Shown: positions 1,629 through 19,332 of the stretch, piece after piece
How positions within the stretch are numbered: position 1 is the first letter of the stretch
How the letters are laid out: each line of letters opens with the position of its first letter
Position numbers and translations under genes: made by a program
Virus record (IMG/VR): IMGVR_UViG_3300045988_074229
Location: 1-19,332 of that record
Origin: a virus
DNA: 19,332 bases
Direction: 5' to 3' (one strand)
The notes under the pieces: generated by a model
The model's input: only the letters and a program-made list of their open reading frames with translations
Told to the model about the DNA's origin: nothing
The model's database searches: none

Positions 1629-3245
1629 ATGAATACCACGAATAATAAAAAGAACCGCACTGACCGCACATTTTACGCGGCAGTGGCGGACATGACTAAC
1701 GAAAACGCGGAAAGCGTTACACTTAATAGCATTACTTTTAAACGTTGTCTCACTACTACTGCTACGACGTTTGACAGCATCGGCGCATTTTTGAAAGCCT
1801 GGGTTGGTCAAGGGCTTAACGATACAAACACAGTACACACGCTCTTTTTTCCGAATCTCGTTGAGGTCGCTGATACGCTCTTAGCGTACTTTATCGAAAA
1901 CGGTATTAAATACGATAATCAAATCGGTCTTGAGTTTTACGAGTTGCGCTTTTATGTCAACGATTACCGCTTCGAGATTAAAGATTTTAAAAAGGTCTTT
2001 GATGGTGATGTTAACGCTATGCGTGAGACCTTTAAGCTTAGCGGTAGCGACATTGATGTTTTTTGTAAAGCGGTTGAAGAATATTTCGTCGCAGGCAAAT
2101 ACGTTCGCTTTACTAATGCTTCGCAAGCGCTTTATGAATTTAAGCAAATCATGAAACAGCAAGGCTACGCCTTTGATAGTTATTTTCCACAACTTGCGGA
2201 CGATATCGATTCGCTATGTCGTGAAGTAGATAAATCTGGTTGGAATTACGTCGTTCCGAAATACGTTGATAAAGACATTAAAGGCGAGATTAATGTTTTT
2301 GATATTAATAGTATGTATGCCTTTATCCAAAAATCGGCGGTCTTGCCTTATGGTAAACCAGTCGAAATTAATACGGTATGGCCTAAAGCTCCTTTAGAAT
2401 CTCAAGTCTCTTTCGTTTCTTTTGAATGCGAATTTGAATTGAAAGACGGATTCTTTCCATTTGCTAAAACAGTAAACAGCATGTACAGCGATGGACACCT
2501 CACGTATGAAACTAAAGGACGCTCTACGTTTTGCATGACTTGGACTGAGTATCAGCTTTTTCTTAAAAGCTATGACGTCGTAGATTTTGTCTTTTTGAAA
2601 CAGGTGACTTTTGCAGGTGCCAGAGGTTTATTTGATACGTATGTAAATAAATATTACGCTGAAAAACAAGAAGCATCAACTCCTTTTAGTCGACAACATG
2701 CGAAAGCTATGCTCGTTAGTCTTTACGGAAAATTTGGCTCTAAGACTCGTCTTACGAATCGCGATCCACGAATCGACGAAACCACGGGTCGTGTGGTCTA
2801 TGAAAAAGGGCGTGATACGTTCGTAAAAGCGATTTACGCTCCAATGACTGCTGCTATTGCTTCTCTCGCTCGTACATATATTGTATCAGTCGCTCTCATG
2901 CATCGTGATAACTTTGTTTATAGTGATACGGATGCGGTACACTTGACAACTAAAGACGTGAAATTTGAAGTTGATTCAAAAAAACTCGGTGCGTTTGATT
3001 TGGAAGTCTCAGGCGTTCGCTTTAAATACATCCGTCAAAAATGTTACGCGATCGAAAAGACAGACGGTTCTCTCCACGTAAAGGTAGCAGGCATGACGGA
3101 CGCGGTCAAAAAACAGGTGACTTTTGACAATTTCAAGGTAGGTCAAAAATTCGACGGTCTCAAGAAAATGATTGGTCGTCGTGGTGGTATGTCGATTGTC
3201 ACAACTACTTTTGAAATTAAGGCAATTGACGATTTTGACTATTGA
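1629..3245 (+). CDS. Family-B protein-primed DNA polymerase (phi29 gp2-like, 538 aa)
   Basis: Motifs read directly: FDINSMYA (motif A), KAMLVSLYGKFG (motif B), FVYSDTDAVH (motif C, YxDTDS type), IRQKCYAIE and KVAGMTDAVKKQVTFDNFKVG. The last matches phi29 KCAGMTDKIKKEVTFENFKVG, recalled from memory. The N-terminal exonuclease motifs are not recognisable (see findings). Confidence 0.97.
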   Translation: MNTTNNKKNRTDRTFYAAVADMTNENAESVTLNSITFKRCLTTTATTFDSIGAFLKAWVGQGLNDTNTVHTLFFPNLVEVADTLLAYFIENGIKYDNQIGLEFYELRFYVNDYRFEIKDFKKVFDGDVNAMRETFKLSGSDIDVFCKAVEEYFVAGKYVRFTNASQALYEFKQIMKQQGYAFDSYFPQLADDIDSLCREVDKSGWNYVVPKYVDKDIKGEINVFDINSMYAFIQKSAVLPYGKPVEINTVWPKAPLESQVSFVSFECEFELKDGFFPFAKTVNSMYSDGHLTYETKGRSTFCMTWTEYQLFLKSYDVVDFVFLKQVTFAGARGLFDTYVNKYYAEKQEASTPFSRQHAKAMLVSLYGKFGSKTRLTNRDPRIDETTGRVVYEKGRDTFVKAIYAPMTAAIASLARTYIVSVALMHRDNFVYSDTDAVHLTTKDVKFEVDSKKLGAFDLEVSGVRFKYIRQKCYAIEKTDGSLHVKVAGMTDAVKKQVTFDNFKVGQKFDGLKKMIGRRGGMSIVTTTFEIKAIDDFDY

Positions 3246-3270
3246 CAATTTTTTAAAGTTTTGCTATAAT
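3242..3270 (+). promoter_or_regulatory. Consensus sigma-A promoter P1 (TTGACA-17-TATAAT) driving small RNA A
   Basis: TTGACA 3242..3247 overlaps the polymerase TGA stop. The spacer is 17 nt and TATAAT lies at 3265..3270. Confidence 0.75.
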
Positions 3271-3319
3271 GACAATGTGAGGTTAAGTGGTATTACCTCA
3301 CAGAGTATCGCTGAAATCG

Positions 3320-3348
3320 GGGCGTTAGTAGTGCAACGCTCTTTTTTT
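3320..3348 (+). terminator. Intrinsic terminator T1
   Basis: Stem GGGCGUU/AACGCUC (7 bp, one G.U), 8-nt loop AGUAGUGC, then U7 (3342..3348). It would also end the early operon. Confidence 0.75.
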
Positions 3349-3401
3349 GTACTGTTTTTAGTGGTACGCGTTAGAGTTACAGCACTACTCAGCAACGGTC
3401 A

Positions 3402-3429
3402 GGGCGTTTATAAAAACGCTCTTTTTTTT
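3402..3429 (+). terminator. Intrinsic terminator T2
   Basis: Stem GGGCGUUU/AAACGCUC (8 bp, one G.U), loop AUAA, then U8 (3422..3429). Confidence 0.8.
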
Positions 3430-3441
3430 GTATTCTAGCGC

Positions 3442-3470
3442 TTGACGTATTTGCCTTAGTGTGTTATTAT
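3442..3470 (+). promoter_or_regulatory. Promoter PB (TTGACG-17-TATTAT with upstream TGT) driving small RNA B
   Basis: TTGACG 3442..3447 and TATTAT 3465..3470, preceded by TGT. About 35 of 41 positions match the late promoter at 3837..3877 by hand alignment, including the shared GTGTTATTATAATAGTACA. Confidence 0.7.
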
Positions 3471-3477
3471 AATAGTA

Positions 3478-3644
3478 CAGAGATAGGCAAGGTAGAGCGT
3501 CTATCTCACAAAATTACATGAGTCATATTACATGAAGTACCACCTTTCTTATTAAAATCATAAAATCTCCTTTCTTTCTTATTTATCTATACTTTAAGCT
3601 CTACCACTACTACCACTTAGACGAGATGTCTAAGTGGATTTTTT
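3478..3644 (+). ncRNA. Predicted small RNA B (about 165 nt) with a pyrimidine-rich anti-SD-like core; prohead-RNA or regulatory RNA candidate
   Basis: Bounded by PB and terminator TB. The 5' hairpin is GAGAUAG (3480..3486)/CUAUCUC (3501..3507). Its loop GGUAGAGC (3491..3498) is complementary to GCUCUACC (3598..3605). Only 5- and 7-codon ATG ORFs without SD occur on this strand. Confidence 0.55.
3613..3644 (+). terminator. Intrinsic terminator TB
   Basis: Perfect 10-bp stem CCACUUAGAC/GUCUAAGUGG, loop GAGAU, then A + U6 (3639..3644). Confidence 0.85.
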
Positions 3645-3650
3645 ATATAT

Positions 3651-3678
3651 AAAAAAACAGCTTCCGTAAGGAAACTGT
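3651..3678 (-). terminator. Intrinsic terminator TC (minus strand), convergent with TB
   Basis: On the - strand: ACAGUUUCC UUAC GGAAGCUGU, a 9-bp stem with one U.G, followed by a U run (complement of A 3651..3656). On the + strand the same stem has a C/A mismatch and no U run, so it is oriented for - strand transcripts. Confidence 0.75.
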
Positions 3679-3797
3679 CTGAAGAAACTATCCGAGAGCA
3701 ACTGACAAAGCACGTGATTAAGATGCGAAAGCGTCAGGCGCAACTCAATGCGCAATCATCCTGGCGCTATGCGTCAATCACAATCGGTGCTTCTTGT
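3651..3797 (-). ncRNA. Predicted small RNA C (about 140 nt), transcribed divergently from the late promoter
   Basis: Bounded by - strand promoter PC (3804..3832) and - strand terminator TC. Internal helices: 3714..3719 with 3776..3781, 3730..3738 with 3760..3768, and 3739..3742 with 3749..3752. No SD-led ORF. Confidence 0.5.
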
Positions 3798-3803
3798 ATT
3801 ATT

Positions 3804-3832
3804 ATCTTAACACAAGTCTCAAAAAGTGTCAA
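3804..3832 (-). promoter_or_regulatory. Promoter PC (minus strand TTGACA-17-TAAGAT with upstream TGT)
   Basis: Reverse complement of 3827..3832 is TTGACA. The spacer is 17 nt. Reverse complement of 3804..3809 is TAAGAT, preceded by TGT. It shares CTTGACA...CTTGTGTTA with PB and the late promoter. Confidence 0.65.
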
Positions 3833-3837
3833 GCTAC

Positions 3838-3866
3838 TTGACATATTTGTCGTCTTGTGTTATTAT
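3838..3866 (+). promoter_or_regulatory. Late-operon promoter (TTGACA-17-TATTAT with upstream TGT)
   Basis: TTGACA 3838..3843 and TATTAT 3861..3866, followed by SD AAAGGAGG (3886..3892) and the scaffold ATG at 3903. Its -35 box lies back to back with that of PC. Confidence 0.75.
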
Positions 3867-3902
3867 AATAGTACAAATAAATGTAAAGGAGGCTTTTCCA
3901 CA

Positions 3903-4205
3903 ATGGATACAGCTTTTGAAACTAAAGACGCTCTTGAGCTTCTTGACTCACTTCCTGAACGTGTCGGAAACGACGATGAAATCGAATCAATTCTCGCGGA
4001 CTTGATTACATTAAAAGATTTTGTCAGCACGATTGATGAAATCGTGGCAACGTTGAACGAGGATGTCGCAAACCTTAACAAAAAAAACCAGGGTCTTATG
4101 GCATCAAATAACACGCTTTACCGACAAATTGGAAAACAAAACGAAGCAGCTGAAGAAGCTAAAGAAGCAGTCTCAAAAATCGCACAGATTAACGACTTGT
4201 TTTAA
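3903..4205 (+). CDS. Scaffolding protein (phi29 gp7-like, 100 aa)
   Basis: ATG at 3903 follows a strong SD AAAGGAGG. The protein is acidic and coiled-coil. LMASNNTLYRQIGKQNEAAEE resembles phi29 gp7 LIVSNSKLFRQIGLTEKQEE (recalled). The ORF-track start at 3714 would run through the promoter, so I reject it. Confidence 0.85.
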   Translation: MDTAFETKDALELLDSLPERVGNDDEIESILADLITLKDFVSTIDEIVATLNEDVANLNKKNQGLMASNNTLYRQIGKQNEAAEEAKEAVSKIAQINDLF

Positions 4206-11820: not shown

Positions 11821-14800
11821 TTGGTAAAAGAAACAACAAAAATTAAGCTTTATTCAAAATCGCCATTTCGGAGCGATTACGCGAACGTTATCCATTTTGA
11901 CAATCGCGACGAGATGCAAAAATATTTTGATACCGATTCACCGCATCTAAAGAAAATTTATGAATCTGATAATTTTCAATTTATTTCGCGAACGGGTGAA
12001 ATCTACGTGAGCGGACGTCAGGAACAATTTGAGACAGCGACTTACATGTTTTTTAAAAACGCAGGTAAGGAATATTACGCGTTTGTTTACGACATTGCGT
12101 ATATTAACGAGAACACCACAAAAATTATTTATGAGTTGGATATTTGGAACACTTACCAACCAATGTTATTTAACAAAAACACTCAAGTCAGCGGAACCAT
12201 TGCGCAATATTTACCGTATTTACCGAGCGACGATAAAAACTTTAGAGCACGTCATACAAACACGCAAGGCTTTAACGTCGGAAGTAAAGCTACGGAAGAA
12301 ATTTATGACGTAGGCGCAAACTTAGTGGACTGGCTCGTTATTGTAGCTAAGCCAGAATTTAAATTTAAAGGTGAAGCAGGAACACCCGCGTCAGACATGT
12401 CTTTCTCAGGTACTCAAAAAAGCTTAAAATACTATTTTGTACCCGTCGAAATTGCAGGAAAAATGACGAAACAGTTTGAGCTCGACGGTCAGACCTATCC
12501 ACCAAAGCCAATCGTCACAATTTTGCTCGAGTGCTTCGGTATTACTGTCGGCGGTAAGCATATTAGTCCAACCAAGGACAATACGGCGGACGCGCAAAAC
12601 ATCGCCGCAAATAATATCGTAAATATGTACTACTCACGCTACCTTGGTATCGATTACGATTATGACGGAAGCGTTGTCAAGATTAAAAAAGCGGATGGCG
12701 ATATTTTCAACGTCGTAGGCGTTGGACGCCAATCATCAGCCGCACCTTCAGGCGGTTCGGGGGATCTCGTAACAGTCGGAGGGCCTACGGGAAGCGAGAA
12801 AGAAATCGCTGAACGTATTGCAAAAACTATAAAAGCAAATTATCCACCTGCAACGGTTAACGGAATCGCAGCACTCCTTGGAAACGCTAAACAAGAGTCA
12901 TCAATGGACTATACCATCGACGTTGCGGCAGGGCTTGGGCTTTGGCAATGGACGAGCACACGGGCGCAAGGTTTGCGAAATTATGCACACTCGAAAGGCA
13001 TTTCTGAACACACTATCGAAGCGCAAGTCGGATGGCTCCTTAACGAGCCAGGAGAAAGCGAAACGGCGAAAGCTGTACTTTCAGGAAACGATAGCGCTGG
13101 CAATTTGTCTGACATTTTTGTCACACGTTGGGAGCGCGCAGGTATTCCAGTCGCGGACAAGCGCAGAGCATACGCCGAAAGCTTCGTTCCTGTTGTTAAA
13201 GCTGTAATTAATGACGTAGGCAATAACAGCAACGCAGGAAAAAACGCGGACAATAAAACAACATCAGCGCCAAAACCTGCAGAAGTAACTGAAAAAGTTA
13301 TCGCAAAAGTAAAAGCTATGGCAAATAAAAGCGTAGGTAACGGACAATGTTACGCGCTCTCGTCTTATTATTGTCAGTGTTTCCGAGAGTTGGGCGTTGA
13401 TGCGCCTGGACTCGGTGCAGGCGTCGGAAATCTTTATAAACAAATCGGCGACACTTATAACGCTTACGCAATCGGAAGCGCTTACGACTGGAAATCATGC
13501 GGGTGGGGTGTGAAATTTAATCCATCGGAAGAAGATTTTAAAAACGCCGCGGGCTGTATGATTAACTATAAACCAAACTACGGACCAACGGTGACAGGCG
13601 GTGCAGGGCATACCGGTATTTGTATAAGCTACGATGGACACAGCTTACACACCGTGGAACAAAACTACGGCAACAACGGCTATACTTTGGACCACGTCGT
13701 CACACACGTTCACGCGGATGCTTTGTCTAGTATTGTGATACCACCGGACGTACTCGCAGGCGGAAAGATTAATCCTGACGTTGTTGGAGACGCAAGCGGT
13801 GGAGATGGCTCAGGCGGTGCGAATAGTGCGGCTTATATCGTAAAAATTGTAGAGCATCCAAAAGCAGCGCCTAAATTTATCGAGATTGACGAACTAAAAC
13901 CTAAGATTCTAAAACGTCTCAAAGCGTATATCAAAGACACGTTAGGCGAACGTTTCGTTCACATGGCGAACCAATTGCTTTTAATTTCCGAACTTATTGA
14001 CGTCGAATTGTACGATTATTACGGAAACACGTACGCTTATCAGCTCGAGCTTTTGAACAATCTCCAAACCGAGGACGGTAAGTACTACAATAAATCAGCC
14101 ATAATGCTACTCGGAAGCGTTGGAGACCAAAATTACAATTTTGCGGGGCTCGTTGGATACGGTCACACTCATAATATTGTTGATCAAAATAATAAGACTT
14201 TTAAAATTAAAGCAAAAGCGGACGAGAACATTATATCCAAGTGGGATATTATGCAATACGGAATTTTTGACACAACAGGAAAAAATCTGACAATTCTCGA
14301 CGACGCTACGGCTACGTACATTCAAGGACACGCGGCACAGATTAAAGCGCAACAAGCAAGCTTTAATGAAAACGCAAGCCTCCAAAGACAACAAGCGGAT
14401 ATGAACAATCGTCAGACCTCATTTGCTAACGACAAAAATATTTACGGAGCGAATTTCGCAGTGGATCAAAGCGTCTTCAAGCGCGGAAAAGCTGGAGTCA
14501 TGGCAACAGTAGACGTCGCGACAAATGCGCTCGACATCTTTTCTCCACTTAAAAAAGATGAGACTTATTTGGGTAAGTTTATGTCAACGGCAAGCAACAC
14601 CGCAAAAGCAGGAATGAACGGATACTACAACGTCCAACAGTCGCTCATGGATGTCACAAACGCAAAAGTAAATCGTTCCTTTGCGCAAGATGAAAACGAA
14701 TTACGTAGCCAAAGTACAGCGCTCGCGAACTTGCAAGCAAAAACAGCCATTGACCAACAAATCCGCGCCTTTAACGCGACAATGACAGACTTACAAAATC

Positions 14801-15210
14801 AACCTGATGGCATACAACAAATGGGTAACGATATTAGCTTCCAAACAAGTAATTACCAACAAGGATTATTTATTCGTATTCGTTTTCCATATCCAGAACA
14901 ACTTAAAACAGTTTTGACATATATGCATCTCTACGGTTATATCTATCAAACAGAATCAAACGACGTTTTAAAATATGCATATAATCGCAAAGCGTTTAAC
15001 TATATTAAATTAACAAGCGTGGATGTCAGCGGACTTGAAGCACCGCAAAGCGACTTAGCTATGATTAAAAATATCTTAGCATCAGGCGTGCGAATCTGGG
15101 AAGCGAAATACTTAGATTATACTAAGCCTAAGCCGTTTGACATCTATACGCAAAACCCAAACCGTGCGGACGACCAGGCGGTTCTTGACAGCTATCGAAA
15201 CTTTGATTAA
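11821..15210 (+). CDS. Tail knob protein (phi29 gp9-like) with inserted tail-lysozyme-like and CHAP peptidoglycan-hydrolase domains (1129 aa), TTG start
   Basis: The N-terminus SPFRSDYANVIHFDNRDEMQKYF resembles phi29 gp9 VPFSNDYKNTRWFTSSSNQYNWF (recalled). Gly/Ser linkers lie near 12730..12790 and 13786..13830. The lysozyme-like segment is LLGNAKQESSMDY...GLGLWQWTS...RWERAG. The CHAP segment is GNGQCYALSSYY...GAGHTGICISYDG...VEQN. Confidence 0.85.
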   Translation: MVKETTKIKLYSKSPFRSDYANVIHFDNRDEMQKYFDTDSPHLKKIYESDNFQFISRTGEIYVSGRQEQFETATYMFFKNAGKEYYAFVYDIAYINENTTKIIYELDIWNTYQPMLFNKNTQVSGTIAQYLPYLPSDDKNFRARHTNTQGFNVGSKATEEIYDVGANLVDWLVIVAKPEFKFKGEAGTPASDMSFSGTQKSLKYYFVPVEIAGKMTKQFELDGQTYPPKPIVTILLECFGITVGGKHISPTKDNTADAQNIAANNIVNMYYSRYLGIDYDYDGSVVKIKKADGDIFNVVGVGRQSSAAPSGGSGDLVTVGGPTGSEKEIAERIAKTIKANYPPATVNGIAALLGNAKQESSMDYTIDVAAGLGLWQWTSTRAQGLRNYAHSKGISEHTIEAQVGWLLNEPGESETAKAVLSGNDSAGNLSDIFVTRWERAGIPVADKRRAYAESFVPVVKAVINDVGNNSNAGKNADNKTTSAPKPAEVTEKVIAKVKAMANKSVGNGQCYALSSYYCQCFRELGVDAPGLGAGVGNLYKQIGDTYNAYAIGSAYDWKSCGWGVKFNPSEEDFKNAAGCMINYKPNYGPTVTGGAGHTGICISYDGHSLHTVEQNYGNNGYTLDHVVTHVHADALSSIVIPPDVLAGGKINPDVVGDASGGDGSGGANSAAYIVKIVEHPKAAPKFIEIDELKPKILKRLKAYIKDTLGERFVHMANQLLLISELIDVELYDYYGNTYAYQLELLNNLQTEDGKYYNKSAIMLLGSVGDQNYNFAGLVGYGHTHNIVDQNNKTFKIKAKADENIISKWDIMQYGIFDTTGKNLTILDDATATYIQGHAAQIKAQQASFNENASLQRQQADMNNRQTSFANDKNIYGANFAVDQSVFKRGKAGVMATVDVATNALDIFSPLKKDETYLGKFMSTASNTAKAGMNGYYNVQQSLMDVTNAKVNRSFAQDENELRSQSTALANLQAKTAIDQQIRAFNATMTDLQNQPDGIQQMGNDISFQTSNYQQGLFIRIRFPYPEQLKTVLTYMHLYGYIYQTESNDVLKYAYNRKAFNYIKLTSVDVSGLEAPQSDLAMIKNILASGVRIWEAKYLDYTKPKPFDIYTQNPNRADDQAVLDSYRNFD

Positions 15211-19277: not shown

Positions 19278-19332
19278 CTTTCTGTTTTATCTACTATAAG
19301 TATAGCACTAATACATCTACCTGTCAAGTAAA
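19278..19332. repeat. Right inverted terminal repeat (55 bp)
   Basis: Exact reverse complement of 1..55, checked base by base. Confidence 0.95.
19299..19327 (-). promoter_or_regulatory. Early promoter inside the right ITR (TTGACA-17-TATACT on the minus strand)
   Basis: Mirror copy of 6..34. It drives the three - strand genes. Confidence 0.75.

Follow-up and report, generated by a model that had tools for sequence, protein, structure and literature searches.

A clade-specific small RNA gene behind the DNA polymerase of a phi29/Cp-1-like phage: tandem terminators and a predicted self-masking read-through tail

For phi29-like phages, a classic model, the packaging RNA (pRNA) is to our knowledge the only non-coding RNA known. 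The phage genome analysed here carries, directly behind its DNA polymerase gene, a segment (3275-3429) that the initial annotation had proposed to encode a small RNA with tandem terminators and, in one of its loop complementarities, a likeness to phi29 pRNA. The questions that this locus raises are whether such an RNA, here called RNA A, is real and selected, whether it is the packaging RNA of the phage and, if not, what its complementary segments might be for.

The phage genome and the gap behind its polymerase gene

The window, by which we mean the whole stretch of DNA analysed (19,332 bases), is bounded by perfect inverted terminal repeats of 55 nt (1-55 and 19278-19332), each with an inward-reading promoter (TTGACA-17-TATACT), and these repeats mark it as a linear genome that is essentially complete. 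The phage, a phi29/Cp-1-like podovirus, encodes a Cp-1-type terminal protein, a protein-primed DNA polymerase (1629-3245), scaffold, major head protein, connector, lower collar, tail knob, a gp16-type packaging ATPase, a holin and a CHAP+GH25 lysin. A tail protein of 1129 residues (11821-15210, plus strand) is made up of the N- and C-terminal regions of the phi29 gp9 tail knob and, inserted, a phage tail lysozyme domain. The DNA polymerase is only ~30% identical to those of Cp-1, CP-7 and phi29; near-identical polymerases number ~300 in human-associated metagenomes, and the polymerase search found no cultured relative. The lysin is ~59% identical to Streptococcus phage lysins, a likeness that points to Streptococcus as the probable host.

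A gap of 657 bases separates the polymerase stop codon (3243-3245) from the scaffold ATG (3903), and three small RNA genes appear to be present in it in this clade:

3275-3429, plus strand: RNA A
about 3477-3645, plus strand: RNA B, with its promoter at 3442-3470 and terminator T3 at 3613-3637
about 3645-3800, minus strand: RNA C (about 3797 to 3648), with its promoter from 3832 to 3804 and its terminator from 3680 to 3655

We compared this slot (3246-3902 in the window) with the corresponding ones in L001 (3703-4654), L042 (1708-2659) and L044 (about 3040-3978). In Cp-1, L042 and L044, two conserved open reading frames of the orf6/orf7 families, phrog_26305 and phrog_22891, lie between polymerase and pRNA gene, whereas in the clade studied here the same place is taken by RNA A and RNA B, so that two small RNAs occupy the positions of protein genes in related phages. 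A search of the window for a remnant of Cp-1 orf6/orf7 found none.

Two further observations concern the right-hand part of the gap. The true start of the scaffold gene is ATG 3903, with a ribosome-binding site, AAAGGAGG, at 3886-3893. A listed open reading frame (3714-4205) runs further upstream; that part of it overlaps RNA C and the late promoter and is non-coding, and the scaffold product in the gene calls of relatives has 100 residues. One promoter cassette occurs in three copies, in front of RNA B, RNA C and the late operon (3441-3495, 3794-3833 and 3837-3891), with 78% identity over 55 nt; the copies of RNA C and the late operon form a 40-nt mirror pair. In each copy the -10 lies inside the palindrome TGTGTTATTATAATAGTACA, and the palindromic cassette looks like a shared operator for a regulator. 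The promoter of RNA A and the terminal-repeat promoters are of the other type (TGCTATAAT/TGCTATACT).

A transcription unit with two terminators

For comparison, 13 distinct versions of the region 3200-3950 were collected from IMG/VR, metagenome and Logan/ENA contigs, and six added later brought the set to 19. The relatives are 90-94% identical overall, and their divergence is very uneven. Positions are nearly free to vary, with insertions and deletions, in the four nucleotides after the -10 (47% identity), at 3362-3369 (62%) and at 3393-3400 (43%); the loop of the first hairpin, terminator T1 with its loop and U tract, the stretch 3350-3361 (none of 12 columns variable) and 3382-3389 are invariant or nearly so. 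RNA A and its promoter consist of the following parts:

3242-3270, plus strand: promoter P1, with -35 TTGACA (3242-3247), TGn (3262-3264), -10 TATAAT (3265-3270) and a 17-nt spacer
3276-3302, plus strand: 5'-terminal hairpin H1, with stem 3276-3283/3295-3302 and an 11-nt loop, UAAGUGGUAUU, at 3284-3294
3303-3318, plus strand: linker, unpaired in the predicted fold of the short form and nearly invariant
3319-3348, plus strand: terminator T1, with stem 3319-3326/3335-3342, an 8-nt loop, AGUAGUGC, at 3327-3334 and a U tract at 3343-3348
3356-3369, plus strand: segment with the 3' strand (3356-3367) of a predicted helix with the linker, termed P-link; it includes the hypervariable core 3362-3369 and coincides with the third decamer of the initial annotation
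3370-3392, plus strand: conserved block of the read-through extension, with the T1-loop complement GCACUACU at 3382-3389 and, at 3373-3377, AGAGU, which is complementary to the T1 3' arm
3393-3400, plus strand: hypervariable spacer before T2, with all eight columns variable, 43% mean identity and indels
3401-3429, plus strand: terminator T2, with stem 3401-3409/3414-3422, a tetraloop and seven U

P1 had been described as a perfect consensus promoter, and this was borne out by a promoter scan, in which it matched the consensus at 12/12 positions and had the TG element. Its -35 hexamer, which overlaps the TGA stop codon of the DNA polymerase gene (3243-3245), is kept in 13/13 relatives, and its -10 reads TATAAT in 11 and TATACT in two. 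Conservation resumes sharply at 3275, immediately after the four variable nucleotides that follow the -10. We place the predicted start near 3275-3277, where conservation begins, and from there the predicted isoforms would measure ~72 nt when ending at T1 and ~153-155 nt when ending at T2.

H1 folds at -11.0 kcal/mol (z -3.2). All cells of its stem (100%) are paired in the relatives; a compensatory change from G:C to A:U occurs once and a wobble change twice, and its loop is invariant. T1 was found by the terminator scan (-9.6 kcal/mol). Only one of the 32 columns of its stem, loop and U tract is variable, stem and loop being called invariant in 19 relatives; T3, by contrast, has 54% variable columns, and like the terminator of RNA C it has diverged through compensatory changes. 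Sequence invariance of this kind is what would be expected if each T1 base has to satisfy more than one pairing. T2 was likewise matched by the terminator scan (-10.5 kcal/mol, z -5.0). The 14-nt 3' halves of T1 (3335-3348) and T2 (3415-3428) are identical (AACGCTCTTTTTTT) and the 5' arms are similar, from which it appears that one terminator arose by duplication of the other; the extension between them comprises 52 nt. The locus therefore has the make-up of a sigma-A-type unit, with consensus -35 and -10 elements at the correct spacing and Rho-independent terminators, both conserved in the relatives, and in this respect the proposed two-domain non-coding unit with tandem terminators stands.

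An open reading frame that runs across RNA A in the window (3172-3438) is not kept. Among the relatives its stop-free stretch ranges from 21 to 81 codons, and the RNA A region has indels of 1-2 nt. Independent gene calls in eight relatives gave no plus-strand gene in the gap, the single call there being a 35-codon one on the minus strand of contig L120. Taken together, the uneven conservation, the kept promoter, the covariation in H1 and the loss of the frame lead us to conclude that RNA A is a real, selected, non-coding and strongly promoted transcription unit, the transcript itself being predicted.

Judged by sequence searches, it is also a clade-specific family. No Rfam family matched at its gathering score, and the matches at E<=10 were at chance level; a search of 50,697 phage records with nucleotides 3100-3800 gave no match, and ARAGORN found no tRNA or tmRNA. 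A pattern combining the H1 and T1 loops matched once in 185,579 species genomes, in a member of the Flavobacteriales, which is about the chance expectation, and in viral contigs it retrieved nine, all of which had already been collected.

Complements in the read-through tail and the readings they allow

The T1 loop (AGTAGTGC, 3327-3334) has a perfect reverse complement, GCACTACT, at 3382-3389, as the initial annotation had stated and as can be read directly from the sequence. A perfect 8-mer complement arises in 0.68% of dinucleotide shuffles of 3349-3400, and an energy-based test of loop against tail gave P=0.015. All 13 distinct relatives retain the pairing: it is Watson-Crick throughout in 12, and in one it includes a G.U pair, which stems from a single C-to-U change, the only variation found in 3382-3389. 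Absence of the complementarity in related phages had been named beforehand as one refuting observation; it was looked for, and with the six further relatives the pairing is kept in 19/19. Selection on the T1-loop complement in the downstream tail is thus supported by conservation within a clade of 90-94% identity in which loop and complement never vary together.

A second fold-back involves the linker. Its segment 3305-3316 (GUAUCGCUGAAA) pairs with 3356-3367 in the predicted folds of several relatives while T1 is retained, and the stretch 3304-3369 folds with this P-link helix at -21.1 kcal/mol (z -3.2). The hypervariable core exists in 14 different versions across the 19 relatives, and all of them keep a duplex of ~12 bp with the invariant linker. 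The duplex energies, -10.5 to -16.0 kcal/mol, compare with a mean of about -7 for permutations of the same core (P<=0.06 for each version, mean z -2.9), and the covariation includes G.U pairs. We rejected a local hairpin (3348-3352/3364-3368, the apex of the rod-like fold described below) as a conserved fold: it is lost in several relatives, in which P-link is kept. For this reason T1 most likely remains standing on P-link in the read-through isoform, its loop facing the downstream complement.

The behaviour of this core also bears on four related decamers (at 3283, 3325, 3358 and 3371) that had been pointed out in RNA A. All four are present as written, and the first, second and fourth are invariant or nearly so, but the one at 3358 varies in most relatives, and the four do not form a conserved repeat family; their likeness may be a matter of chance. 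The third decamer resembles the others only at positions that have to pair with the linker at 3305-3316, and this pairing requirement seems the better explanation of the resemblance.

The initial annotation had further proposed that loop and tail meet, as a pseudoknot or between molecules. This part is plausible, and the linker helix would keep T1 standing in the long isoform, but the nested folds are divided. In the nested minimum-energy folds of the long form, 9/13 relatives adopt a rod that joins the T1 loop to 3382-3389 and the T1 3' arm to AGAGU (3373-3377), and 4/13 adopt T1 plus P-link; the predictions were nested only, and rod and pseudoknot are not separable by nested folding. Opening the T1 loop is predicted to cost ~2.5 kcal/mol more in the long than in the short form. 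According to these models, the extension would in either fold, rod or P-link, mask the linker and the T1 loop, two of the three elements that lie exposed in the short RNA.

We infer that RNA A represents a new family with an unusual isoform logic, and its function can be predicted along the following lines. As the likeliest of the readings weighed here, though quite possible rather than probable, we read it as a base-pairing small RNA that comes in a short open and a long self-masked isoform by way of terminator read-through. The gene, which lies at the 3' end of the early operon for terminal protein and DNA polymerase, would be transcribed from a consensus promoter of its own. Stopping at the modest terminator T1 would yield an RNA of ~72 nt with a protective 5' hairpin and an exposed H1 loop, linker and T1 loop, and this short form would act as a base-pairing regulator through its loops and linker. 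Read-through to T2 would append an extension, two segments of which would fold back on the exposed parts: 3356-3367 would zip onto linker 3305-3316 and leave the T1 hairpin atop the P-link helix, and 3382-3389 would then pair with the T1 loop, either in a loop-tail pseudoknot or, after refolding, in the rod. The long isoform would accordingly be a self-masked version of the short one, or could equally well act in trans as a sponge for it, and how often T1 stops transcription would determine how much of the RNA is open and how much masked. If this is true, the switch would be a compact and easily testable case of isoform control in a small RNA, and RNA A would open a way into the study of RNA-based regulation in lytic phages that infect Gram-positive bacteria.

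Parts of this scheme have precedents. The c4 antisense RNA of phages P1 and P7 and the CI RNA of P4 are phage small RNAs whose loops pair with short boxes downstream on the same strand or in the same unit; they arise by processing of a longer transcript, and the genes that they control are immunity genes of temperate phages. RNA A is similar in that its loop would pair with a short complement further along the same transcription unit, and differs in having its own promoter, in belonging to a phage that appears lytic and in carrying the complement in its own read-through tail. In SgrS and RyhB, terminator efficiency determines the proportions of an active short and an inactive long RNA, the long form being inactive through loss of the Hfq-binding U tail. 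The efficiency of T1 would likewise decide the ratio of short to long RNA A, but here the tail carries two selected antisense segments that would mask the linker and T1 loop of the RNA itself. Precedents for the loops themselves are the two-site kissing complex of OxyS and fhlA, in which the terminator loop and a second loop contact two target sites (PMC11979758), and Listeria LhrC, in which the terminator loop takes part in kissing contacts (PMC4132741). The H1 and T1 loops of RNA A have two such sites in RNA B. Unlike RNA A, OxyS and LhrC are bacterial small RNAs with proven mRNA targets, whereas the partner of RNA A would be another small RNA and the pairing is predicted; Streptococcus-type hosts, moreover, are not known to possess Hfq.

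RNA B is the only phage-encoded partner that is visible, through conserved single-stranded segments complementary to the H1 and T1 loops. It has an 8-bp closing helix (3491-3498:3598-3605), a terminator, T3, with four compensatory pairs, and an unstructured, highly conserved middle rich in A/U and CU. One of its segments, CUCCUUUCU (3567-3575), matches exactly the 3' end of 16S rRNA, the anti-Shine-Dalgarno sequence, and is complementary to the scaffold ribosome-binding site (3885-3896). The candidate sites for RNA A within 3536-3612 are:

3536-3543, plus strand: AGUACCAC, complementary to the H1 loop
3602-3612, plus strand: UACCACUACUA, complementary to the H1 and T1 loops

The H1 loop (GUGGUAUU/AGUGGUA) matches 3536-3543 and 3602-3608, and the T1 loop (UAGUAGUG) matches 3605-3612. 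The first site is kept in 13/13 relatives; the second is perfect in 10/13, the other three showing a wobble, a mismatch or a shifted register and no compensation. Both sites are largely unpaired in the consensus fold, and the predicted net energies after opening costs are -4 to -7 kcal/mol, the long isoform binding less well. Both kinds of complement occur together in 0.26% of RNA B shuffles; in the energy test the sum gave P=0.007 and the T1 loop alone P=0.10. Whole-molecule RNAduplex scores among RNAs A, B and C lie between z -1.1 and +1.3 and are uninformative, since they ignore intramolecular structure. Among the 13 relatives, in which the RNA A loops are invariant, no covariation between loops and RNA B sites was found, and the link to RNA B is therefore a tentative lead to a possible partner.

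Other candidates for a target or a mechanism were discarded. In a search of both strands of the phage genome, no mRNA target of the H1 loop, linker or T1 loop stood out. Part of the H1 loop (GUGGUAUU, 3287-3294) is complementary to codons 2-4 of the polymerase gene (AUG AAUACCAC, 1632-1639), and such 8-mers occur in the genome in about the number expected by chance. Trans antitermination by pairing of a 9-mer of the H1 loop with the 5' arm of T3 is available in only 2/13 relatives and carries an opening cost of 11.9 kcal/mol. A classical attenuator does not fit the arrangement either: the segment that competes with T1 follows it along the transcript, and a strong promoter of their own serves the late genes.

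The main rival to a regulatory small RNA is a passive 3'-end module, which we regard as doubtful, though well worth weighing. T1 and T2 would then be tandem terminators of the early operon, the fold-backs would stabilise mRNA 3' ends or make termination robust, and the RNA made from P1 would be a by-product that does nothing in trans. The unit does follow directly on the polymerase stop codon, which the -35 hexamer overlaps, T2 duplicates T1, and the phage genome yielded no target. Against this, the -10 and TG elements are kept outside any coding constraint while their flanks vary freely; the loops of H1 and T1 and the stretch 3350-3361 keep one and the same sequence, whereas ordinary terminators such as T3 and that of RNA C drift by compensation; and the extension between the terminators carries two selected complements that a spacer would not need.

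We consider it unlikely, on the other hand, that the base-pairing reading extends as far as a complete RNA-RNA network, in which short and long RNA A and RNA B together would replace two early proteins of Cp-1-like phages. The read-through isoform would serve as self-masked form or sponge and the open isoform would kiss RNA B, the bearer of the anti-Shine-Dalgarno mimic, and the two RNAs together would time the early-to-late switch; alternatively, loop-tail contacts would build head-to-tail assemblies.

Somewhat less likely again is a protein-binding or decoy RNA, whose similar loops UUAAGUGGUA and UUAGUAGUGC would be bound by a phage or host protein, the complements regulating access. Two loops that share a UUARGURGU-like sequence and stay invariant while a stem covaries would fit this idea, as would the local enrichment of the 7-mer AGTGGTA (4/6 of its occurrences in the genome fall in 3286-3617). 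No candidate protein is known, however, and exact Watson-Crick complements, both in cis and in RNA B, would not be required.

That RNA A imitates a host RNA (a CRISPR repeat, a tracrRNA or an antitoxin RNA) and so disarms a Streptococcus defence is very improbable. That a promoter of strong early type precedes the gene of a small structured RNA in a lytic phage would suit such a mimic, and there is a weak similarity, judged by eye, to streptococcal CRISPR repeats; the two-loop pattern, however, has its single, chance-level match among 185,579 species genomes, and Rfam gave no match. An element acting at the DNA level, with AGTGGTA/AGTAGTG words as protein-binding sites or with hairpins in single strands displaced during protein-primed replication, can practically be set aside: the word is locally enriched in both orientations, but the words sit exactly in hairpin loops and single-stranded stretches of the predicted transcripts, the copy at 3360 is not conserved, and the covariation of P-link contains G.U pairs, which work only in RNA.

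RNA C and the question of the packaging RNA

A likeness to the loop contacts of phi29 pRNA had been suggested for RNA A. Taken as a pRNA-like RNA that oligomerises by loop contacts and acts in DNA packaging, RNA A has next to no probability left, and this reading is largely refuted, although several circumstances had made it attractive. A gp16-type packaging ATPase and a connector of phi29 type are encoded by the phage; RNA A lies in the place corresponding to that of the phi29 pRNA gene, at the end of the early operon and in the same orientation; and its loop-strand complementarity could in principle join molecules head to tail. RNA A thus shares with phi29 prohead RNA (pRNA, Rfam RF00044) and the pRNA of Cp-1 the general character of a small non-coding RNA whose gene lies where the early operon ends and has a strong promoter to itself, with short complementary segments that could join molecules. 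It differs from them in structure and distribution. The ends of RNA A are, in the short as well as the long folds, a local 5' hairpin (H1) and 3' terminator hairpins, with no end-to-end A helix, and none of its predicted folds contains a three-way junction with C/E and D arms. Its loop-to-strand complement is constant apart from the one G.U pair, unlike the bulge-loop pair of pRNA, which covaries between phages. A covariance model of RNA A had no match in 77 more distant phi29/Cp-1-like loci (1.03 Mb), which, together with the lack of an Rfam match, confines it to one clade. We conclude that RNA A is not the packaging RNA of this phage.

The phage has a separate gene with every feature of a pRNA. 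RNA C lies ~300 bases downstream of RNA A on the opposite strand and is predicted to fold into a long closing helix and a three-way junction, of which one arm has a bulge (GAUUG, 3757 to 3753) and the other is a hairpin with the loop UAAUC (3720 to 3716). No Rfam family covers it. Even when this clade alone is compared, seven of its pairs have changed in a compensatory manner. With a covariance model built from RNA C, matches of 42-55 bits were obtained in Cp-1 (Z47794, 4647-4807, minus strand) and in 11 Cp-1-like contigs, the polymerases of these contigs being only ~30% identical to that of the window, and in the joint alignment 38/51 pairs show compensatory changes. A Cp-1 pRNA has been reported, according to a statement in a later paper (Martin et al. 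1996, as cited in PMC6266182). The 5-bp bulge-loop pairing of RNA C is intact in 25/25 sequences, in the versions GAUUR/UAAUC, GGUUA/UAACC and GGUAA/UUACC, and a covarying bulge-loop pairing is a hallmark of pRNA (PMC4201828). With its full pRNA architecture, the match to Cp-1 and the covarying bulge-loop pair, the pRNA analogy belongs to RNA C and not to RNA A and is thereby redirected to the right gene, on the minus strand: as far as predicted folds and covariation tell, RNA C fills the role of pRNA in this phage and defines a Cp-1-type pRNA family beyond those in Rfam.
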